DNA from: an uncultured Eubacteriales bacterium
GTDB lineage: Bacteria > Acidobacteriota > Aminicenantia > Aminicenantales > Aminicenantaceae
DNA: 64,000 nucleotides
Assembly: GCA_964645765.1 (NCBI GenBank)
Contig: CAZYBE010000006.1
Location: forward strand, 18,175-82,174
Direction of reading: 5' to 3'
Shown here in pieces: positions 24,340-59,146 of the stretch (its first letter is position 1; the number at the start of each line of letters is the position of its first letter). Below the pieces are notes generated by a model that was not told the DNA's origin, did not search any database, and was given only the letters and a program-made list of their open reading frames with translations. A program made the translations under genes and the position numbers.

Positions 24340-24530
24340 TCCAAAACCGTGATGCATAGCCTATAAAGGAGGTGAGGGTTGAGGGTGAGGAGGCCCCTAT
24401 AAGGCCTGAGCGGGCATGGTTTCTCTCCCAAGGAGAGAAGAGCGAAGGCCGAATGGGAGCTGATTTTCCTCGCTGGGGAAAATCAGCGTGCGACGAATCC
24501 TCAATCCTCACCTCCCTCACGGAAATTGAG
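24340..24530. repeat. Highly structured intergenic element A. It has a long imperfect terminal inverted repeat (aggaggtgagggttgagggtgagg ... cctcaatcctcacctccctcac) and internal hairpins, and contains the ctgagcgggcatggtttctct box shared with other loci.
   Basis: Inverted repeats read directly. Shared 21-mer also at 59118-59138 and, reverse-complemented with one mismatch, around 33590. Confidence 0.45.
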
Positions 24531-24607
24531 ATACTCAGTCCTTGATTTTTCCTGCATTATCATCAACTGCTGTCTCCATGTTATGTGGCTCAGAAAATGA
24601 CCAATCT

Positions 24608-24773
24608 GGAATGGCTTAAGCGACCATTGAAGGTTTAGCCTTCCCTTGCCGTGCTTCGAGGGGACCCAGCTCTGCTGGGCGGCGAGGATGTCTGAGCGAA
24701 GCGAGTTCCGCAGCCGCCGAGAAGCGCGGCAAGGGAACGGCGTTAAAAACCTGAATGGGAGCGAAGCCATTCC
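24608..24773 (+). ncRNA. Candidate structured non-coding RNA / structured repeat, copy 1 (strand uncertain)
   Basis: 166 nt between asnS and rimO. 10-bp terminal stem ggaatggctt/aagccattcc, internal hairpin cccagc-tct-gctggg, and a 48-nt core identical to copy 2 at 47864..48032. Stems covary between the copies. Confidence 0.45.
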
Positions 24774-24822
24774 GGATTGGCTTCCTTTAGCTGTTTACTA
24801 ATGAGCCGTAACAATTTACAAT

Positions 24823-26151
24823 TTGATTCTGATGAATAAAGTCGCTCTGATCAGCTTTGGCTGTGCCAAAAACCTTGTTGACAGCGAAGTCATGCTCGGC
24901 CTCCTGGACAAGGCTGGCTATACCTTTGTCTCTGACCCAAAGGAAGCTGACACCGTCATTCTCAACACCTGCGGCTTCATCGAGCCAGCCAAAGAGGAAG
25001 CCCGTAATGCTTTAAACCAGGCAGTTGCTCTCAAACGAAAGTCTAAGGAAAAGAGAGTCATCGCTGTCGGCTGTTATGTCGAAAGATACAAGAGTCTTTT
25101 GGCTGCAGAATACCCTGAAATCGACACCTGGATTGGGGTCAACGATTTCGACAAGATTGTCCAAGCCATAGAGGGAAAACCATTTGTAAAATCAGAAACT
25201 TGCTTCCTTTATGACCACACCTTTCCCCGCCTCATCCAGACTCCTCCATCATGGGCTTATGTCAAGATATCCGAAGGCTGCTCCCACCAGTGCTCCTTCT
25301 GCGCCATTCCCCTCATTAAGGGACCTTACCGCTCGCGGCCGATCGCTTCCATCCTCCAGGAGGTTGAAGAGCTTTGTTCCCGTGGAGTCAAGGAAATCAA
25401 CCTTGTCTCCCAGGATACAACCTATTTCGGCCGCGACCTTGGTCTCGAGGATGGATTGACCTCTCTCCTCAGCCAGCTCCTTTCCATTCCAAAACTCGAA
25501 TGGGTCCGCATTCTCTACGGATATCCCGATGAAATAAGCTACTCGCTTCTTGAAATCATGAAGGAGAAAAGAATCTGCTCTTATCTTGACATTCCCTTCC
25601 AGCATTCCCATCCCAAAATCATAAAGACAATGAAGAGGGGAATGGACGGCGAGCGGGCGCTCGAGCTCGTCCAGAAAATTAGAGAAAAACTTCCTGATGT
25701 TGCGCTCCGGACATCTCTTGTTGTCGGGTTTCCGGGCGAGGGAAAAGAGGAATTCGATGACCTGGAAAGCTTTGTTTGGTGCGCAAGATTCGACCATCTC
25801 GGCGTCTTCTGCTATTCAAGAGAAGAAGGAACAGACTGTTTCGCTCTCGGTGACCCTGCTAAAGAGAGCATCAAGAAAAAAAGAAAGGATAGAATAATGG
25901 AGCTCCAGATGGTCATTTCCAAGGAAAACAACAAGAAATATTTTAAAAAGAGAATCGATGTCTTGATTGAAGGAGTTCTGAAAGAGAATCCCAAGATGCT
26001 GGTCGGCCGTGGCCCGTTTCAAGCTCCTGAGGTGGATGGCGTGATATTAATCGATGCCACTCGAAAAGCGTCAGAAGCCGTCAACACCATCCAGAAAGTT
26101 GAAATCAAAGGCTGGGATGTATATGATTTATACGGAAAATTGGGTACATGA
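24823..26151 (+). CDS. rimO: Ribosomal protein S12 methylthiotransferase RimO (radical SAM MTTase)
   Basis: MTTase N-domain (ALISFGCAKN), radical SAM CSHQCSFC, TRAM C-terminus. 442 aa. Confidence 0.8.
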   Translation: MILMNKVALISFGCAKNLVDSEVMLGLLDKAGYTFVSDPKEADTVILNTCGFIEPAKEEARNALNQAVALKRKSKEKRVIAVGCYVERYKSLLAAEYPEIDTWIGVNDFDKIVQAIEGKPFVKSETCFLYDHTFPRLIQTPPSWAYVKISEGCSHQCSFCAIPLIKGPYRSRPIASILQEVEELCSRGVKEINLVSQDTTYFGRDLGLEDGLTSLLSQLLSIPKLEWVRILYGYPDEISYSLLEIMKEKRICSYLDIPFQHSHPKIIKTMKRGMDGERALELVQKIREKLPDVALRTSLVVGFPGEGKEEFDDLESFVWCARFDHLGVFCYSREEGTDCFALGDPAKESIKKKRKDRIMELQMVISKENNKKYFKKRIDVLIEGVLKENPKMLVGRGPFQAPEVDGVILIDATRKASEAVNTIQKVEIKGWDVYDLYGKLGT

Positions 26152-33439: not shown

Positions 33440-33700
33440 GTTTCTTATTTATCCCGGGCGAAGGCTAAGTGGTTCGAAAACCGTTTGAATGGCTCCGGCT
33501 AAGTAGCTCGAAAACACGCAGGCTTTGCCCCAGCGAGGCAAAGCCTGCTCGGTTTCAGGCTTCGCTCTCCTCGACCGGAGGTCGAGGAACCATGCCCGCT
33601 CAGCCTTCAAACGGTTTTCGAGCTACTTAGCCTCTGCCAGATGGATCAAAAGCCTGCGTGTTTTCGAACCACTTAGCCTGAGCCCCAATTTGAATTTACA
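33440..33700. repeat. Composite palindromic intergenic repeat element. A 19-bp unit (ggctaagtRgYtcgaaaac) occurs twice direct and twice inverted, with internal hairpins and the ggctgagcgggcatggtt box.
   Basis: Read directly: ggctaagtggttcgaaaac (33463) and ggctaagtagctcgaaaac (33497), with reverse complements at about 33613 and 33661. Hairpin cctcgacc-gga-ggtcgagg. Confidence 0.5.
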
Positions 33701-38734: not shown

Positions 38735-39264
38735 TGAGAGGAGAAGAAATGAAGGCTCTTCTTGTGATTGACATGCTAAAAGACTTTCTCAATAAGGATG
38801 GCGCTCTGTATTGTGGCGATGAATCAAGGAAAATCATTCCCTTTGTCAAAGAAAAGATTGAAGAGTTCCATAAAGAGAGTGACCTGGTTGTTTTCATCTG
38901 CGATTCCCACGACCCCGATGACTTAGAATTCAAGATGTTTCCCAGGCATTGCGTTGCTGGCACAGAAGGAGCTGAGATCATCGACGAGCTTCCGGTTGGG
39001 AAAAAGGATGTTGTTGTCAAGAAGACCCGCTACAGCGCTTTCTACAAGACAAAGCTGGATAAAATTCTGAAGAAAAGGAAGGTCAGCGAAGTCTATATGG
39101 TCGGTGTCTGCACCTCAATCTGCGTCATGGACACTGTTGGAGACCTCCGAAACAGGGACTATCCAGTCTTTGTTTATAAAAACGGAGTGGCAGATTTCGA
39201 CCGGAAAGCCCATCAATTCTCCCTAGAGAGGATGGAGAAAACCTACGGTGCGAAAATAATCTAG
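38731..39264 (+). CDS. Isochorismatase-family cysteine hydrolase (nicotinamidase-like)
   Basis: ALLVIDMLKDF (catalytic Asp), K, and VGVCTSICV (Cys nucleophile). Confidence 0.7.
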   Translation: MMRGEEMKALLVIDMLKDFLNKDGALYCGDESRKIIPFVKEKIEEFHKESDLVVFICDSHDPDDLEFKMFPRHCVAGTEGAEIIDELPVGKKDVVVKKTRYSAFYKTKLDKILKKRKVSEVYMVGVCTSICVMDTVGDLRNRDYPVFVYKNGVADFDRKAHQFSLERMEKTYGAKII

Positions 39265-39351
39265 AAGGTCCTATCCAGAATGGCCTTGCTCCCATTCAGG
39301 TTTTTAACGCCGTTCTTTTTTTTGTGGATTTAAAATTTTTCCTGAAAGGAG

Positions 39352-39888
39352 TTGGACATGAAAGAGCAAACAATAAGGGGAAAAAAAATCAAGCTTATCG
39401 AGGGCAACATTGCTCTTCTCGACGTTGAGGCAGTGGTCAATGCTGCCAACAAAAATTTAATCCTTGGAGGGGGCGTTGCCGGAGCCATAAAGAGATATGG
39501 CGGCCCTTCCATCCAGGAGGAGTGCAATAAAATCGGGCCGATCAAGACAGGCGAAGCGGTCATAACGGGCGCAGGCGACCTCAAGGCTAAGTACGTCATC
39601 CACGCCGTTGGCCCTGTCGCCGGAGAAGGACAAGAAGAAGAAAAGTTACGCAGCGCAACTCTCGCGAGCCTTAAGATAGCCAAAGAAAGAACTATAAAAA
39701 ACATTGCTTTTCCTGCCATCAGCACCGGCATCTTTGGCTTCCCTATCGAGAAGTGCAGCGAGATCATGCTCAAGGCAGCAGCGGACTTTCTGGATAAAAA
39801 TGATTACCCCAAAGAAGTCATTTTTTGTCTTTTTGGAGAAGAAGCTTATTTTGTCTTCGAAAAGGCTCTGGAAAAATTGACCGGATAA
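39352..39888 (+). CDS. Macro domain protein (O-acetyl-ADP-ribose deacetylase / ADP-ribose binding)
   Basis: VVNAANKNLILGGGVAGAI and HAVGPV motifs. Confidence 0.8.
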   Translation: MDMKEQTIRGKKIKLIEGNIALLDVEAVVNAANKNLILGGGVAGAIKRYGGPSIQEECNKIGPIKTGEAVITGAGDLKAKYVIHAVGPVAGEGQEEEKLRSATLASLKIAKERTIKNIAFPAISTGIFGFPIEKCSEIMLKAAADFLDKNDYPKEVIFCLFGEEAYFVFEKALEKLTG

Positions 39889-39897
39889 AATTTCCTT

Positions 39898-40494
39898 TTA
39901 TCCCTCAGATATTCTTTTTTGAACAGCTTGCCAGATGTCTTCTAATCCTAATCTTTTTGCCCACAGAGAAATATAGTTATAATCTATCATTTCTTTTGAA
40001 ATTTTTAGAATTCCTGTGATATCGCGGAGATGTTTTTCTGAACCGCCTTCTCTATAATATTCCATTTTTTTAATAATCACATCTTCGGGAGAAGCAAAAT
40101 TGGCTTCCGCATCTTCCAGCGCTTTGATTCTTTTTATTCGGTTAAATTGACTCTTGTCAAAATCGTCCATTTTGCTGATGATGACATCTATTTTTAGTCC
40201 TGAAGCAGGGTGAATAATATTGAATGAATGTTTGAGGAGAATGGCTTTCTTTATCATATCTTCATCCAGATAAAAATCTTCCTTAGGAAAATATTTTATT
40301 AACGCCTTGATATGTTCCTCCTTGATATCTGCTACAATATCAATGTCAATTGTTAGCCTTGGCTCGCCATAGGCGATACTGGCAATAGCGCCGGTAATCA
40401 GATAGGGAAATTTTAAACTCTCAAAACAGCGGATGACCAGGCGGAGGAGCTCAGACTGTTCCATGAGACATTCTCCTTGCAGTTTCTCTTTCAA
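39898..40494 (-). CDS. Pol-beta superfamily nucleotidyltransferase-fold protein (paralog of 22310..22897)
   Basis: ITGAIASIAYGEPRLTIDIDIV, LKIDVIISK and PEDVIIKK...HLRDITGIL. Collinear with the first copy. Confidence 0.5.
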   Translation of the reverse strand: MKEKLQGECLMEQSELLRLVIRCFESLKFPYLITGAIASIAYGEPRLTIDIDIVADIKEEHIKALIKYFPKEDFYLDEDMIKKAILLKHSFNIIHPASGLKIDVIISKMDDFDKSQFNRIKRIKALEDAEANFASPEDVIIKKMEYYREGGSEKHLRDITGILKISKEMIDYNYISLWAKRLGLEDIWQAVQKRISEG

Positions 40495-40666
40495 TTTTTT
40501 TTTCTGACCAATCAGGATGCAAAGAGTGAAGGCTATTCGAGAGCAAAATTATTGTCGAGCGCCACAGGCCAAAGGCGATGCGCAGGCGCTCAAGAGGGGT
40601 CTTGTTTTTATAGATTACGACCATAACATCATCGACCGCTTCGACATGAAAAAACTTATTCTCCAT
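40451..40666 (-). CDS. Small hypothetical protein (71 aa), putative partner of NTase 39898..40494
   Basis: Overlaps the NTase start by 44 bp. Shares segments with the ORF at 22093..22320. Confidence 0.25.
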   Translation of the reverse strand: MENKFFHVEAVDDVMVVIYKNKTPLERLRIAFGLWRSTIILLSNSLHSLHPDWSEKKIERETARRMSHGTV

Positions 40667-40722
40667 TATTGCCTTTTTTTGCTTTATAGCATAGCAAGAA
40701 AATCAGGTCAAATAAGACTCTC

Positions 40723-41532
40723 TCAAAGAAATTTCTTTCCTCTCTTGAGAAGAAAAAAGAGTCCAAAAAAGAGGAAAGAGAGAATGACAATAGTTCCAGA
40801 AGCGGGAAAGTCCAGATAAAAGGCTAAAAGAAGACCGCCAAGAACAGAAACAAGAGCAGTGAGGGAAGAAAGAATAATAGCCTGCTTGAAATTGGATGCA
40901 AGTTGAAGGCCAGCAGCAGCCGGGATAACGACCAGGGCTGAAACCATAAGAATTCCGACCACTTTCATCCCCAGGACAATAGTCACAGCTGTAAGCACAG
41001 TTAACAGAACGTCAAGGCGATTGACCCTAATTCCTGAAGCCTTGGCTGCTTCCCGGTCAAAAGTCAGGTACATGAATTGGCGATAGTTTAGAATCACAAT
41101 CATGACGACCACCGCAGCCAAGCCGATGGAAAGATAGACTTCTGAGATATCTATGGAGAGGATATCTCCGAAAAGATAGCTGAGGAGGTCCACGTTGAAG
41201 CCATGAGCAAGGGTCACCAACAAAATTCCAACAGCAAAGCCGGCACTGCTGAATATGGCGATAGCCGTATCGCCGTAGAGTCCGGCTTTCTCCTTGACCT
41301 TCATGATTCCCAACGCGGCCAATGCAGCGATGGCAAGAGCCATGGCCAGAGGAACAACTTTAAGAAAAAAGCCCAGGGCAATCCCGGCAAAGGTGATGTG
41401 CGCCAACCCGTGGCCGATCATGGCATCCCGCCTTAAGATGATGAACACGCCTAAAAGAGCACAAGCTAAAGCGACAAAGACTCCGGCAAGGAGCGCACGC
41501 TGCAGGAATCCATATCTAAGAAGAGCTTCCAT
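40723..41532 (-). CDS. znuB: Metal (Zn/Mn) ABC transporter permease
   Basis: 269 aa, ZnuB/MntB-type 8-TM permease. Confidence 0.8.
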   Translation of the reverse strand: MEALLRYGFLQRALLAGVFVALACALLGVFIILRRDAMIGHGLAHITFAGIALGFFLKVVPLAMALAIAALAALGIMKVKEKAGLYGDTAIAIFSSAGFAVGILLVTLAHGFNVDLLSYLFGDILSIDISEVYLSIGLAAVVVMIVILNYRQFMYLTFDREAAKASGIRVNRLDVLLTVLTAVTIVLGMKVVGILMVSALVVIPAAAGLQLASNFKQAIILSSLTALVSVLGGLLLAFYLDFPASGTIVILSFLFFGLFFLLKRGKKFL

Positions 41533-41538
41533 TTTTTA

Positions 41539-42306
41539 TCAATGGTGATGGGAGATGAGGTGGTTTCCTCCGGCAAGCATTTCTTTGAAGGCCGCAGAGC
41601 GGCAAAATTCAGCGTGAGTGCCGTGATAGACCAACCTCTGGTTGATGCAGGCGACTTTGTTCACATGGCGGTTTACAACTCCGATATCGTGGGTGATAAG
41701 AACAATGGTGATGACTTCTTTTTTATTCAAATTATCGAGCATGTCATAGAAATGCTCTTGAGTCTCAGCATCCACGCCAGTTGTCGGCTCATCAAGGAAA
41801 AGAAGATGAGGCTCGCTGACGATGGCTCTGGCAATAAAAACTCGCTGCTGTTGTCCTCCTGAAAGATTCCCGATGCGCCAGCTTTTGAAATGTTCCATGC
41901 CGACATTCTCCAATGCTTTCCTTATGGAAAGCTCTTCCTCTCGCTTTGTCAGCCTTAGAAATTTTCCGCTGGAAAGAAGCCCCATGGCCACGACTTCTTT
42001 GACTGATACTGGAAAGAAAGGGTCAAAATGAGTCGCCTTCTGAGGGACATAGCCTATTTTTTGCCAGGCATTAAACTCCTCGACAGGCTTTTCCAAAATT
42101 TGAACTTCCCCGGTTGAGGGCTTCAGAAGTCCTAGGATGATTTTGATCAGGGTTGTTTTCCCAGAGCCGTTGGGGCCAATGATGGCCAAAAAATCACCCT
42201 GCTGGATGTGGAAGGAAACATCTTTTAGGACCTGGACGGAGCCGTAGCTGAAGGAGACATTCCTGAGGGTGATCAAGGTTCTGTGTTCAGCGGCAGTTGA
42301 GTCCAT
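41539..42306 (-). CDS. znuC: Metal ABC transporter ATP-binding protein
   Basis: Walker A GPNGSGKTT, signature LSGGQQQR, Walker B LLFLDEP. Confidence 0.85.
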   Translation of the reverse strand: MDSTAAEHRTLITLRNVSFSYGSVQVLKDVSFHIQQGDFLAIIGPNGSGKTTLIKIILGLLKPSTGEVQILEKPVEEFNAWQKIGYVPQKATHFDPFFPVSVKEVVAMGLLSSGKFLRLTKREEELSIRKALENVGMEHFKSWRIGNLSGGQQQRVFIARAIVSEPHLLFLDEPTTGVDAETQEHFYDMLDNLNKKEVITIVLITHDIGVVNRHVNKVACINQRLVYHGTHAEFCRSAAFKEMLAGGNHLISHHH

Positions 42307-43228
42307 TTTTTAAATTCTCCAGATTCTTTTCCATTATATCAAAAAATGTCTTCCCCGACTTCAACTCGGCCTTAGTCAGATTTTCTCCAGGATTCAAGAC
42401 AAGGGTCCTGGCCCCAAGTTCCTCAGCCAGAGCCTTTGCTAATTTATTGCCGATTTGAATCTCAAAAAAAATGACCTTTATCTCAAGCTTTCTTGCCGTT
42501 TCCACAGCTTCAGCCATCATCTTCGGTGTAGGTCCGGAATCCGGGTTCAATCCATAGAGAGAAACCTGATGAAGGTCGTAGCGTCTCGCCAGGTAACCAA
42601 AAGCGGAATGCCCGCCGACAATAAAAGTCCTGTGAAGACAATTTCTTAAGCCTTCCCTGAACTTCTGTTCAAGGCTCTGAAGCTTTTCTTTATAGACCAA
42701 AGCATTCTTTTTAAAAATTGACGAATTTTTTGGTTCTATCTCAGAAAGGATCTCGGCAATCCTTTCGACAATCACCTGGTCGTGCTCAAAATCCAGCCAG
42801 ACATGCGGGTCTGGAATCATTTGCTCATGCTCATGATGAGGGCCTCGAGCTTCGCTTTCGAGAAGAGAAATTCCCTGGCTTGCCTCAAGAACTTTAAGCT
42901 GCGGATTCTTGATAATCTTCAGAAAATCCTTGAGCCATGGCTCCATGTTTAAGCCGATAAAAATAAAGAGGCGAGCCGAAGAGAGTCTGATGATATCACT
43001 CGGCCTGGGCTGCCAAGTATGAGCCTCAGCGCCAGGAGGAAGAAGAAGACTGACCTCTCCCCTTTCCCCTGAAACAGCTCGAGCAAACTCCATCAAAGGG
43101 AAAACGCTGGCGACAATCTTAATCTTTTCAGAATCGTTCCAATTTCGCTGGGGAAAGCTCAAAAGGCTAAAAACTAAAAGAATGAAAAGAAAAAACAGAA
43201 ACAACTTTTTTATCAACATCTTAGGCAT
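42287..43228 (-). CDS. znuA: Metal ABC transporter substrate-binding protein (ZnuA/TroA cluster 9) with a His-rich loop
   Basis: Signal peptide, cluster-9 SBP fold, GPHHEHEQ loop. Overlaps the znuC start. Confidence 0.75.
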   Translation of the reverse strand: MPKMLIKKLFLFFLFILLVFSLLSFPQRNWNDSEKIKIVASVFPLMEFARAVSGERGEVSLLLPPGAEAHTWQPRPSDIIRLSSARLFIFIGLNMEPWLKDFLKIIKNPQLKVLEASQGISLLESEARGPHHEHEQMIPDPHVWLDFEHDQVIVERIAEILSEIEPKNSSIFKKNALVYKEKLQSLEQKFREGLRNCLHRTFIVGGHSAFGYLARRYDLHQVSLYGLNPDSGPTPKMMAEAVETARKLEIKVIFFEIQIGNKLAKALAEELGARTLVLNPGENLTKAELKSGKTFFDIMEKNLENLKNGLNCR

Positions 43229-43306
43229 CTTATTTCCTTAAACGAGGGAGGTCATGGATCAGGCCGGGTGTTTAGAAAACGCCCAGCCTGATCCTATTCA
43301 TATGTA

Positions 43307-44431
43307 TTACTCTACAGGATAGAGCCTCTCCTTCCACTCGAACTTTTTCTTGAAAAGCGAAAGACGAAAAGAATTAAGGAGAATGGCGAGGGCAAAAACG
43401 ACTGTCAAAGGGTGGAGCTGCCCATAGACGACATTGACTCTAAACCTCATGGATAAAACCAATTTAATAAGAGCGATGGTCATCACCTGGAAGAGAGGCA
43501 ATGTCAGCGATTGGTGTGATTCTAAAGCTGCCCAGAGGGAAAGATAGGGATAGATGAACAAATAATAACAGCCAAAAAGAATTAGCGCCAGGTAATGAGG
43601 CGCCTTTCCTATAGCTTCATAAGAATTCTTGGAAAATCCAGTCCAGACTTCTTTAAAGCAGGAGTAAAACCTGACATCCATGAACTGAGTTCCATCCAGT
43701 ATAGAAATTTTTCCTTTGTTTTCCTTAACTTTTTTTGCCATGGCGAGGTCATCAACAATCTCAGCCTTAATTGCCTCATAGCCTCCCCAGGAAAAAAAGA
43801 AATTCCTCTCGATGAAGAGAAATGGCCCCATGCCAAATGAGAGCCTTGAATCCTTGGAGAAATTAATCAGCTTGAAAGGAAGAAGAGCGACAAAGACAAA
43901 ATGGATGATAGGGAAATAGAGCTTTTCCGCCCAGGTCTTGGTGATAAAACTCGGAATGCAGCTGACAAAAACTGATTTCCTTTTTCTGGCCACGGCCAGA
44001 GCCGTCGAAACGGATTGCGGCTGATGGATTGTATCGGCATCGGTGAAAAGAAACCAATCACCTCGGGCAGCAAGCGAAAGCTGATGGCAGGCCCAGTTCT
44101 TTCCATTCCATCCGGCCGGAAGCTCCTTGCCTTTGATGGCTCTCAGCTTCTGATGATGTCTGGAGAGGTCCTTCACAATCTCATATGTTCTGTCAGTTGA
44201 GTTATCATCAAGAACGATGATTTCAAGCCTGGGGTAATCAGATTGAAGAAGTGAGGTCAGACAGTTTTCAATTTTTTCTTCCTCGTTCCGGGCCGGAATG
44301 AGGACAGAGATAAGGGGCAAGGGCGATTCAAGCTTTATGTATTCCTGCGAGCGAAGAATCTTAAGATTCTGGAGCAGGTTGAGGAGAATGAGAAAGAGGC
44401 AAATTAAAATTAGCGCCTGTATGAATTGCAT
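43307..44431 (-). CDS. Family 2 glycosyltransferase (membrane-anchored)
   Basis: ISVLIPARNEE...VLDDNSTD GT-A motifs. Additional TM helices. Confidence 0.7.
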   Translation of the reverse strand: MQFIQALILICLFLILLNLLQNLKILRSQEYIKLESPLPLISVLIPARNEEEKIENCLTSLLQSDYPRLEIIVLDDNSTDRTYEIVKDLSRHHQKLRAIKGKELPAGWNGKNWACHQLSLAARGDWFLFTDADTIHQPQSVSTALAVARKRKSVFVSCIPSFITKTWAEKLYFPIIHFVFVALLPFKLINFSKDSRLSFGMGPFLFIERNFFFSWGGYEAIKAEIVDDLAMAKKVKENKGKISILDGTQFMDVRFYSCFKEVWTGFSKNSYEAIGKAPHYLALILFGCYYLFIYPYLSLWAALESHQSLTLPLFQVMTIALIKLVLSMRFRVNVVYGQLHPLTVVFALAILLNSFRLSLFKKKFEWKERLYPVE

Positions 44432-47758: not shown

Positions 47759-47863
47759 CCTTTTCCCTCCTTGTTCAGGAAATGGGCTTAGGCCTATGCT
47801 CATTTATAATCCAGTGCAGGATGATTTTTCAATAATTAAAAATCCTTCATTTGAAAATTTTTT

Positions 47864-48032
47864 GGGAAATAGCCGCAGCGACCATTGAAGATTTAGCCTT
47901 CGACATTCGCTCTTCGAGGGAACCCGACGAAGTCGGGCGGCGAGGATGTCTGAGCGAAGCGAGTTCCGCAGCCGCCGAGAAGAGCGAATGGAGAATGGCG
48001 TTAAAAATCTGATTGGAGCGAGGCTATTTCCC
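47864..48032 (+). ncRNA. Candidate structured non-coding RNA / structured repeat, copy 2
   Basis: 11-bp terminal stem gggaaatagcc/ggctatttccc, hairpin cccgac-gaa-gtcggg, and the same 48-nt core as copy 1. Confidence 0.45.
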
Positions 48033-48125
48033 AAAAATAATATTTTTTCCTTGAATCATTGAGTTTTTTATGTCAATATCTTGCCTCATTTTAAATTAAT
48101 TCTCTTCTTCATCGGAGGCTGAACA

Positions 48126-49583
48126 ATGTCATCAGTATTTCAACAATTAAAGCCATCCCACCTCTGGAAACATTTCGAACAGATTCTCAAAATCCCTCAT
48201 TGCTCGGGCAATGAAAAAGCTTTGGGCGATTATATTGTCTCCACGGCCGAGCGTCTGAATTTGAGCTGCAAAAGAGATAAGGTCGGGAATGTCGTCGTCG
48301 CAAAAAAGGCGACACCCGGACATGAGAAGGCCGAACCTGTCATTCTCCAAGGACATATGGACATGGTCTGTGAAAAAAATTCCGAAGTTGTCCATGACTT
48401 CAACCAAGACGCCATAAAAGCCGAAATCAAAGGCGAATGGGCTCAGGCTAAAGGGACAACCCTTGGCTCTGACAATGGAATTGGCCTGGCCGCTTCTTTA
48501 GCAGCCATGGAAGACAAGAGTCTTGTCCACGGACCTCTGGAATTTTTGTTCACAGTGGACGAAGAAACAGGACTTACCGGTGCGAACAAGATAGAATCCG
48601 GCTTTCTTAAAGCGAAAAAACTTCTCAACCTGGACAGCGAAGATGAGGGAGCTTTCACCATCGGCTGTGCTGGTGGAGCTGACTCAGAAATCAGCTTCCC
48701 TTTGAAGAGGAAGACACGAAGCAGCCAAGAGCTCTATGGGCTTAAGATCCATGGCCTGAGGGGCGGACATTCGGGGCTTGATATCAATCAAGGCCGTGCC
48801 AACGCTATAAAATTGCTGGCGCGCATGCTCTGGCAAGCTTTGAAGAAATTTTCATTTGAATTGGTTCGAATGGAAGGAGGAAATAAAAGGAACGCCATCC
48901 CGAGGGAAGCATGGGCTGATTTGCTCTTAGAGCCGAACCAGATTCAAGACCTTTCCATCTTTCTCCGAAAAGCATTTGAAAAGATACAATTCGAATACAA
49001 GGCTGTGGAAAAGGAGGCCAAATTTTCTTTCGAAAAGTCAGACGGGGAAAAAGAAGGCCCTTTGACTCCAGAATCTCAGGCAAATCTCGTCAACCTCCTC
49101 TTCAGCCTTCCCCATGGAGTCATCGCTATGCACCCTGAGATAAAAGAGCTTGTGGAAACATCTACAAACCTGGCCATCATCCATACCTTTCAAGACCATG
49201 CCCAGATCATCTGCAGCAGCCGGAGTTCAGTCGCTTCATCTCTGGAAGCCACCAGGAATGCTATCACTGCCCTCTGTGAGCTTGGCAAAGCAAAAGTCAC
49301 TCAGCCTGAAGGATATCCTGGCTGGACGCCAAACCTCCACTCCCCTCTTCTCAAAACTTTGAAAGAAGTCTACAAAAAGACTTTTCAAAAGGAGCCGGAA
49401 GTCGTAGCTGTCCACGCCGGCTTAGAATGTGGAATCATAGGAGAAAAATTTCCCGGGATGGATATGATTTCTTTTGGCCCGACCATCGAGCATCCTCATT
49501 CTCCAGAGGAAAGAGTCCATGTTGGCTCTGTGGAAAAATTCTGGAAATTCCTGACCGCAGTTCTCTCTGAGTTGGCTACGTAG
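48126..49583 (+). CDS. pepD: Aminoacyl-histidine (Xaa-His) dipeptidase, M20C family
   Basis: HCSGNEKALGDYI and ILQGHMDMV metal-ligand motifs. 485 aa. Confidence 0.85.
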   Translation: MSSVFQQLKPSHLWKHFEQILKIPHCSGNEKALGDYIVSTAERLNLSCKRDKVGNVVVAKKATPGHEKAEPVILQGHMDMVCEKNSEVVHDFNQDAIKAEIKGEWAQAKGTTLGSDNGIGLAASLAAMEDKSLVHGPLEFLFTVDEETGLTGANKIESGFLKAKKLLNLDSEDEGAFTIGCAGGADSEISFPLKRKTRSSQELYGLKIHGLRGGHSGLDINQGRANAIKLLARMLWQALKKFSFELVRMEGGNKRNAIPREAWADLLLEPNQIQDLSIFLRKAFEKIQFEYKAVEKEAKFSFEKSDGEKEGPLTPESQANLVNLLFSLPHGVIAMHPEIKELVETSTNLAIIHTFQDHAQIICSSRSSVASSLEATRNAITALCELGKAKVTQPEGYPGWTPNLHSPLLKTLKEVYKKTFQKEPEVVAVHAGLECGIIGEKFPGMDMISFGPTIEHPHSPEERVHVGSVEKFWKFLTAVLSELAT

Positions 49584-59076: not shown

Positions 59077-59140
59077 TCAAACGCTAATACGAGCGGTGAG
59101 TGGTGAAGGCCGGTATGAGGGCTGAGCGGGCATGGTTTCT
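59077..59140. repeat. Copy of the intergenic repeat family (gaaggccgg ... ctgagcgggcatggtttctct)
   Basis: 21-mer identical to 24407-24427. Confidence 0.4.
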
Positions 59141-59146
59141 CTGCGC

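Follow-up and report, generated by a model that had tools for sequence, protein, structure and literature searches.

Several families of small repeats that fill intergenic DNA without coding for protein are known from bacteria, among them Correia/NEMIS (Neisseria), ERIC/IRU (enterobacteria), RUP (pneumococcus) and Nezha (cyanobacteria). These elements are small (<300-450 bp), non-coding and multi-copy, end in terminal inverted repeats (TIRs) flanked by target-site duplications (TSDs), vary in presence between relatives and can form a hairpin from end to end. The same features recur in an element of Candidatus Aminicenantes, three copies of which lie in the window, the whole 64-kb stretch of DNA that was analysed. 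The Aminicenantes element, however, belongs to another sequence family in another phylum, is flanked by an 8-bp duplication, and has an interior that consists of a three-way junction with invariant blocks and carries a hairpin tip common to many phyla; to our knowledge, a tip shared with the repeats of many phyla has not been reported for any of the four described families.

A sequence-only reading of the window had described two copies of an identical 48-nt core, surrounded by three stems that pair despite sequence differences, and had proposed a novel structured RNA on the forward strand upstream of rimO and pepD. The 48-mer GGGCGGCGAGGATGTCTGAGCGAAGCGAGTTCCGCAGCCGCCGAGAAG does occur exactly twice in the window, both times on the forward strand, where none would be expected by chance, and all three stem differences were found as written in copies 1 and 2, along with a fourth long covarying stem (CCTTGCCGTGCTTC/GAAGCGCGGCAAGG versus ACATTCGCTCTTC/GAAGAGCGAATGG). 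Folding showed each copy to be a single long hairpin with a three-way apex; the proposed hairpins are real, but their limits are wider than had been given (Table 1). The minimum free energies are -93.9 kcal/mol for copy 1 and -80.9 kcal/mol for copy 2, corresponding to z-scores of -7.7 and -6.8 against dinucleotide shuffles, and the complementary strands fold too, though less well (-81.2 and -70.8 kcal/mol, respectively). Copy 1 contains an outer stem of 17 bp (CCAATCTGGAATGGCTT/AAGCCATTCCGGATTGG), a three-way junction, the side hairpin CCCAGC-TCT-GCTGGG and the tip hairpin, while copy 2 represents a sub-lineage with the outer stem TTTTTGGGAAATAGCC/GGCTATTTCCCAAAAA. The two copies share 63% of their positions outside the core (85/134), a divergence at which 48 consecutive identities have a probability of ~3e-10. 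When the 60 consensus pairs are compared between them, 15 have changed on both sides and still pair, one has changed on a single side and still pairs, and three are broken in one copy. The original observation is confirmed, and is stronger than was stated.

That there are just two copies did not hold. A third, a remnant with only the 3' outer arm, lies on the reverse strand of the window and begins on the final base of the stop codon (39262-39264) that ends the upstream gene. It was exposed by comparison with L020, one of two related MAGs that carry the same element, whose DNA is ~83% identical to window positions 39343-43449 and whose orthologous site holds a full copy of a long variant. Relatives supplied 52 further copies (54 in all), one of them a full-length copy in L169 that aligns with copy 1 at 87.8% identity over 180 nt (blastn); the RimO and PepD homologues, with 70-94% identity, carry the name Candidatus Aminicenantes, whereas the window's exact RimO sequence had no database entry. 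When JGI metagenomes were scanned for a 32-mer of the core, 49 loci were found; in many of them the match lies right at a contig end, a mark of repeats that interrupt assembly, and the elements explain contig breaks in Aminicenantes assemblies. Copies were also seen to adjoin, or to sit inside, other hairpin repeats.

Alignment of the flanks showed that conservation extends beyond the previously noted hairpin by ~65 nt on its left side and by ~45 nt on its right. Full-length copies measure 261-268 bp (consensus 268 bp), with a longer variant of 421-440 bp that has an extra module in its 5' arm, and they end in 22-bp TIRs, GGATCTCTTCCAAGTTGTGTGG on the left and CCACACAAAATGGAAGAGAACC on the right. 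The TSD is A/T-rich and 8 bp long, with perfect 8/8 examples in L169 (AAATATAA) and L174 (ATTTTCAT) and 7/8 examples in L133, L141, L150 and L156; a duplication of at least 6/8 flanks 13 of 25 copies (52%), compared to 4.7% in a control in which left and right flanks were taken from different copies. A 77-bp derivative (L169, 3659-3735) has kept both ends and lost the whole central hairpin, and it too is flanked by a perfect 8/8 duplication, ATTAAAAT. Six-frame translations of the element, analysed as one of four families that included other repeats, had no match in Pfam, and substitutions in the element track pairing and not codons. The family is abundant in Candidatus Aminicenantes and has no conserved coding capacity. 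It unites TIRs, a TSD of fixed length, small size, multiple non-coding copies and presence/absence polymorphism, and we conclude with high confidence that the window elements are decayed copies of a MITE. Copy 1 lacks its right TIR and retains an eroded left one, and the TIRs of copy 2 are eroded; as neither has intact repeats, we infer their own arrival from intact relatives.

Table 1 Positions in the window of the element copies, their parts and the flanking genes.
Feature	Position	Strand	Remarks
Segment carrying copy 1, absent in L125/L126	24514-24786	+	From alignment
Copy 1, left TIR, eroded	24569-24588	+	GCTGTCTCCATGTTATGTGG vs consensus GGATCTCTTCCAAGTTGTGTGG
Copy 1, central foldback hairpin	24601-24780	+	MITE positions ~47-226 of the 268-bp consensus
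Copy 1, 48-nt core	24677-24724	+	Identical to copy 2 core
Copy 1, tip motif T-GTCTGAGC-GAA-GCGAGTT	24689-24708	+	Cross-phylum motif, inside the core
rimO	24832-26151		Flanks copy 1
Copy 3, remnant with 3' outer arm only	39264-39315	-	MITE positions 188-239
Copy 2, central foldback hairpin	47859-48037	+	MITE positions ~63-224
Copy 2, 48-nt core including tip motif	47935-47982	+
pepD, M20 dipeptidase	48126-49583		Flanks copy 2

The genes beside copies 1 and 2 had been named correctly, but a two-copy RNA locus tied to rimO and pepD is not supported: the element is a dispersed mobile repeat with TIRs and 8-bp TSDs. Upstream of rimO lies a gene for a 430-aa class-II aminoacyl-tRNA synthetase, and the spacer between the two measures 503 nt in the window versus 74-87 nt in the relatives L123, L127 and L128 (RimO identity 89% and 77%). 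The segment carrying copy 1 is missing from L125 and L126, the closest relatives at this site (93% RimO identity), and the junction reads CCTCA-CCT-[insert]-CCT-TTAGCTG; another insertion, a different foldback repeat at 24356-24513, is shared by the window and L125/L126. At the pepD site, the closest relatives L178 and L179 (94%) have kept no more of the element than its final 38 nt, and it is missing altogether from L181 and L182 (88% and 79%). Over the 54 copies, the element has the same orientation as a neighbouring gene in 31 cases and the opposite one in 44, and the gene end that it faces is a 5' end in 41 cases and a 3' end in 34. No promoter-like site was found upstream of window copies 1 and 2, nor any conserved promoter or terminator, and the promoter-like site of rimO is located downstream of copy 1. 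Given the site polymorphism, the mixed orientation and the lack of an own promoter, the link to rimO and pepD is incidental: the window copies are not regulators of either gene but recent or decaying insertions, and they show neither the own promoter or terminator nor the fixed orientation or position relative to genes that would mark an independent ncRNA. For the annotation of the window, the elements are transposon debris, which removes a false lead as rimO or pepD regulators.

Insertion sequences of the IS6 family (IS26, IS257/IS431, IS1216) generate 8-bp target duplications and move by forming cointegrates, and they are not known for MITE derivatives as a typical feature. In a comparison of short sequences made by eye, the terminal repeat of the L160 copy, TGGTTCTCTTCCAAAGT, agrees at 15/17 positions with TGGTTCTGTTGCAAAGT, the IS6-family repeat that PMC10581047 gives for an IS431mec-like element. 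The Aminicenantes element has both an IS6-type end (GGTTCTGTTGCAAAG-like) and the 8-bp duplication of IS6, which favours an IS6-like enzyme. Unlike in the IS6 family, no IS6 transposase was seen beside any copy or in the loci examined, no autonomous element with these terminal repeats was present in the window or in ~1.3 Mb of related loci, and those loci contained no longer element with the same ends and no transposase gene, so that the assignment draws entirely on repeat similarity and duplication length; it is also tentative in that ISL3-type ends are similar to the element's repeats. With moderate confidence, we suggest that the element is probably moved by an IS6-like transposase.

Constraint on the interior was assessed in a covariation alignment of 27 distinct canonical copies with a consensus of 60 pairs. 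The stems are maintained in these further copies, with 96.4% of cells in the central hairpin of ~170 nt forming standard pairs, and double compensatory changes occur in 24 of the 60 pairs (113 cells). Slid-register controls, in which the 3' partners were shifted by 1-3 columns, gave 5-12 pairs and 11-29 cells, and none of 500 shuffles matched the real alignment on any of five measures. Between the covarying helices lie invariant unpaired blocks, TTTAGCCTT, CTTCGAGGG and GGCGTTAAAAA (also given as ATTGAAGGTTTAGCCTTC, CTTCGAGGGAACCC and GGCGTTAAAAACCTGA), which fall outside the search pattern. The sequence-only reading had taken compensatory changes as evidence of selection on pairing, which the alignment bears out, and as excluding a DNA transposition signal, which fails because the element's transposition signals, its TIRs and 8-bp TSDs, lie further out.

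Transposition via terminal repeats alone does not account for the covarying stems and the invariant blocks, and it is an even poorer account because the 77-bp derivative suggests that the interior is dispensable for insertion. The same derivative, in suggesting that the hairpin is unneeded for insertion, makes a role of the fold in transposition less likely. Since single insertions are freely truncated or lost, selection is placed on active element lineages and not on host loci, and we infer that it acts on the single-stranded folded state of the active (master) copies. The explanation that we consider likely as a whole is that the window elements arose as MITE insertions, with the fold selected in master copies and its formation nucleated by the tip. 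Insertion, by cut or copy, would be carried out by a DDE transposase given in trans, most likely an IS6-like one; the tip would nucleate snap-back folding of the whole element, in the form of either single-stranded DNA or a read-through transcript, and the resulting fold would help the element to persist or propagate. Strong RNA-like covariation inside a DNA transposon is a caution for covariation-based RNA discovery.

The tip itself extends well beyond this family. Its conserved unit is T-GTYTGAGC-GNA-GCGAGTT, as near-matches in the same loci show; in these, the middle loop base is A, C or G and one T-to-C change turns T.G into C-G. Among the matches listed from a one-genome-per-species collection, the 20-mer GTCTGAGCGAAGCGAGTTCC was present in more than 119 stretches, compared to ~1 expected by chance, a figure that we estimated from collection size, and it also occurs in two viral contigs. 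The 20-mer always sits at a hairpin apex, on arms that are self-complementary but unrelated between taxa. At least nine phyla carry the tip, namely Nitrospirota, Bacillota, Bacteroidota, Pseudomonadota, Desulfobacterota, Spirochaetota, Campylobacterota, Patescibacteria and Acidobacteriota, the last being the phylum that holds the Aminicenantes. Among the hosts are Nitrospirales, Lachnospiraceae, Mogibacterium, Peptoniphilus and Acidaminococcaceae; Barnesiella, Phocaeicola, Sphingobacterium and Geofilum; Marinobacter, Stenotrophomonas, Stagnimonas, Methylotenera, Thauera, Iodobacter and Ralstonia; and Desulfobacterales, Spirochaetota, Campylobacterales and Saccharibacteria. In several phyla, and in the window element, a purine-rich CCGAG(A/C)A(G/T)(C/G)GC lies beside the tip hairpin.

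The repeats that bear the tip are built in various ways. Many of the families have perfect arms of 35-50 bp. In Marinobacter, a plain 35-bp stem with the tip and without terminal repeats is found at orthologous sites in several species, and one hairpin of a Marinobacter locus (L090) arose by recombination between two hairpins that lie side by side in another (L003). The Nitrospirales family has a consensus of ~215 nt, in which the tip-bearing hairpin is followed by two small hairpins, again without terminal repeats and with flanks that are not conserved, and Proteobacterial and Bacteroidales loci have a similar trailing hairpin with an A/T stem after the tip-bearing one. As the architectures differ between families, the tip-bearing hairpin is a module found in several kinds of repeat, of which the Aminicenantes MITE is one carrier, and the Marinobacter and Nitrospirales families suggest that the module may lead a life of its own. 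No linked protein family or transposase was found among the ORFs within 1.2 kb or in the whole 8-kb loci at 121 loci. Clusters of ORFs near the motif comprised just spurious ORFs from GC-rich sequence and housekeeping families with no relation to it.

In hairpin form, TGAGC-GNA-GCGAG would consist of two G-C pairs, a GNA triloop, tandem G.A/A.G and a T.G pair; the tandem G.A lie in a Y-GA-R context, and the three-way junction closes with CGAG opposite CGAG. The d(GCGAAGC) mini-hairpin and tandem sheared G.A pairs, e.g. in d(ATGAGCGAATA)2, are unusually stable in both DNA and RNA. The tip resembles these motifs in having GC-GNA-GC flanked by TGA...GAG, with a middle loop base that varies; d(GCGAAGC) and Y-GA-R are, however, structural motifs and not genetic elements, and their presence here is read from the sequence. 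By analogy, the tip is expected to form an unusually stable mini-hairpin, with a GNA triloop on C-G over tandem sheared G.A, and the complementary strand would not adopt the same structure. Nearest-neighbour folding, a method that ignores sheared G.A pairs, returned no structure for the isolated tip.

Covarying stems interleaved with invariant unpaired blocks are the classic signature of an RNA family, and a possible, though not probable, alternative to a fold selected in MITE master copies is that the central hairpin is a true structured ncRNA, carried in many copies as cargo of MITEs and other repeats and acting in trans or in read-through transcripts, possibly as a decoy for proteins, as a cap that resists RNase or as a signal for processing. 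Such an RNA would be in line with the retention of the tip, and not of the arms, over at least nine phyla, with the perfect core of copy 2 between eroded terminal repeats, and with the 77-bp derivative, which in suggesting that the repeats suffice for insertion implies that something else conserves the core. Comparison of the strands points in the same direction within the Aminicenantes family, where in 26 of 27 copies the motif strand is favoured over its complement by ~14 kcal/mol in folding energy, and G:T (G:U) outnumbers A:C by 47 to 20 over the 60 consensus pairs. The gain in folding comes mostly from purine-rich loops, and with the apex masked the motif-strand arms are better by just 1.3 kcal/mol. 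The G:U excess is smaller (29 versus 19) when counted on the 40 pairs that are predicted for both strands alike, and is gone in a structure-free comparison of the arms of all tip-bearing families (G:T 114 versus A:C 140). Arm mismatches are strand-symmetric in this wider tip-bearing group, which does not favour one functional strand; neither the folding of masked arms nor the mismatch spectra showed a robust difference between the strands. The missing conserved promoter and terminator, the unconserved flanks of the Nitrospirales family, the random orientation to neighbouring genes and the free loss or shortening of copies between close relatives also speak against an RNA gene.

Known RNA families were searched with Rfam 15, which gave no match at gathering thresholds over the whole window and, at E<=10 around copy 1, two chance-level matches of 12 bits versus thresholds of 100-200; at 18 diverse loci with related elements from other phyla, again at gathering thresholds, it returned nothing except an unrelated cobalamin riboswitch. 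The original statement that the core was not recognised as a standard RNA family stands at both of the thresholds applied. 6S RNA is comparable in being an irregular long hairpin of ~170-180 nt with internal loops, in which stem structure is conserved above sequence, but the Aminicenantes element has no Rfam match at E<=10, occurs in many copies per genome, is mobile, lies in random orientation and lacks a promoter and terminator. The reading of the window copies as a novel RNA gene thus has only partial support.

An unlikely explanation is that the hairpin is a REP-like module of single-stranded DNA, the tip being the site of an HUH transposase (RAYT or IS200/IS605) encoded once per genome, and that the MITE captured it. 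GCGAAGC is a classic ultra-stable DNA mini-hairpin, and the Marinobacter and Nitrospirales tip hairpins without terminal repeats, the copies beside or within other hairpin repeats and the strand-symmetric arm mismatches, which suit a DNA-level palindrome, would all fit such a module. Like REP and BIME sequences, the repeats are multi-copy extragenic palindromes that cluster as adjacent hairpins, and the tip TGAGCG-N-AGCGAG is near that of enterobacterial REPs, which reads TAAGCG-N-AGCGC (PMC2817692, Table 1). Unlike REP/BIME units of 20-40 nt, however, the Aminicenantes element measures ~170-268 nt, and tip-bearing elements as a whole 95-268 nt; the foot of the hairpin is without a GTAG or CGTC head; no RAYT was seen; and the ORFs of 121 loci held no Y1 cluster and no enrichment of Y1/HUH transposases, although a gene present once per genome could escape such a comparison. 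The terminal repeats and 8-bp duplications of the Aminicenantes element are also not products of HUH transposition, and the tip spans phyla for which we know of no described REP-RAYT system.

It is very unlikely that only the terminal repeats are selected, with arms corrected passively by gene conversion or mismatch repair and a core inherited from a recent master copy: the strand-symmetric G:T versus A:C spectrum, the perfect 35-50 bp arms of many families, the adjacent-hairpin recombination in Marinobacter and the decay of single copies without visible cost would agree with this, but recent common descent cannot give 48/48 identities in copies that are 37% diverged outside the core, arm-to-arm correction cannot maintain unpaired blocks or an asymmetric tip, and the same tip sits on arms without sequence similarity in at least nine phyla.

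Other identities were considered and rejected. Integron attC sites have a pattern opposite to the one seen here, which combines a conserved tip with a variable base and has no GTTRRRY box; hammerhead and other small ribozymes are excluded by the lack of their core motifs and of an Rfam match. A CsrA decoy does not fit, as the GGA lies inside a stem and most families have GGAC, and a K-turn or box C/D shows a register mismatch. A small peptide is contradicted by an ATG that is confined to this sub-family and by substitutions that follow pairing, and a sequencing adapter or artefact by the occurrence of the motif in finished isolate genomes and in many palindromic contexts.

Tentatively, the tip and the flanking CCGAG-type purine loops may together define an undescribed and very widespread class of structured module that acts in single-stranded form, be it RNA or DNA, is read by a broadly conserved factor of the host or of a mobile element, and rides on MITEs and REP-like repeats of nine or more phyla, Patescibacteria among them. 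Should a common factor recognise the tip, bacteria and their repeats would share an interaction that is both new and almost universal, and the idea is approachable in the cultured carriers Ralstonia, Stenotrophomonas and Marinobacter. The tip is absent from Rfam 15, and we found no published description in the literature searched: full-text searches with the core 14-mer, as DNA and as RNA, returned only unrelated plant primers, and literature on hairpin repeats, MITEs or REPs in Ralstonia contained nothing matching the tip element. Copy 1 had no blastn match in plasmids, and the 38-nt tip had none in a phage collection and matched E. coli genomes only as chance 19-mers within a restriction-enzyme gene. 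Searched against plasmids, the same 38-nt tip was found in unannotated copies on Ralstonia megaplasmids.

Besides the MITE, the 268-bp non-coding element of Aminicenantes, the window carries a second, distinct foldback repeat, whose best copy has a minimum free energy of -85.2 kcal/mol (z = -6.1) and contains the motifs GAGCGGGC and GAGCGAAGGCC. Comparison of the spacer upstream of rimO across related loci showed that this repeat is present in L125 and L126 and absent from L123 and L127, indicating that it is an insertion too; MITE copy 1 is inserted directly at its 3' foot. At another related locus (L124 248-2416, 88% RimO identity), a 722-aa sulfatase/TPR gene separates rimO from the aminoacyl-tRNA synthetase gene. 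Since several kinds of insertion, this gene included, occupy the same spacer, we regard it as an insertion hotspot.

Coordinates of the truncated MITE copy and of the second foldback repeat in the window
Feature	Position	Strand	Remark
Third MITE copy, truncated	39264-39315	-	includes 39264, the final base of the stop codon (39262-39264) of the upstream gene
Second foldback repeat, distinct from MITE	24356-24513	+	three-way-junction hairpin
Second foldback repeat, weaker copy	33524-33607	-	
Second foldback repeat, weaker copy	59091-59142	+	

The site orthologous to the third MITE copy in a related MAG is occupied by a long-variant copy of ~430 nt (L020 4280-4710), and to the left of the two elements synteny between the window and this MAG is broken, which suggests that rearrangement or microhomology-mediated deletion occurs at MITE repeats. 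An internally deleted, 77-bp MITE derivative was observed at L169 (3659-3735), in which both terminal repeats are kept and the central hairpin is gone; direct repeats of CTCTCC bound the deleted segment on either side, and a perfect 8-bp duplication, ATTAAAAT, flanks the element. At five further loci (L143, L150, L163, L165 and L172), the side hairpin of the MITE junction, CCCGGCNNNGCCGGG, is replaced by the mini-palindrome AAAAGGGGACAGTCCCCTTTT, perhaps a very short repeat in its own right with the junction as its insertion site.

Hairpins bearing the conserved tip also occur in other phyla. An A/T-stem hairpin, e.g. GGTTACTTTTTTTGG-CGAAG-CAAAAAAAGTGAG, comes next on the 3' side of the tip-bearing hairpin in Proteobacteria, Bacteroidales and Nitrospirales (loci L005, L008, L009, L012, L073, L080, L104, L116 and L122); it resembles a back-to-back pair of short inverted ends. 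After it there is often a third hairpin, which is GC-rich and has a loop of the GCGAAA type. Two neighbouring tip-bearing hairpins are present in Marinobacter sp. ATCH36, compared to one in a related Marinobacter (L003 1926-2168 versus L090 3010-3230); the single hairpin takes its left arm from one of the ATCH36 pair and its right arm from the other, and is thus a recombinant with mismatched arms. In Nitrospirales, pairs of tip-bearing hairpins ~800 bp apart stand on both sides of small accessory genes: in one case (L077 2398-2844) the gene encodes an HTH/XRE-type regulator, in the other (L100 2953-3465) it is an ORF of 170 aa with no family assigned.

Two related MAGs (loci L001, L020, L028 and L103; records CAZJYC01 and CAZGMN01) are titled "uncultured Eubacteriales bacterium". 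One of the MAGs so titled is ~83% identical to the window at the DNA level, and relatives of the window's RimO and PepD proteins bear the name Candidatus Aminicenantes; these titles look mislabelled.
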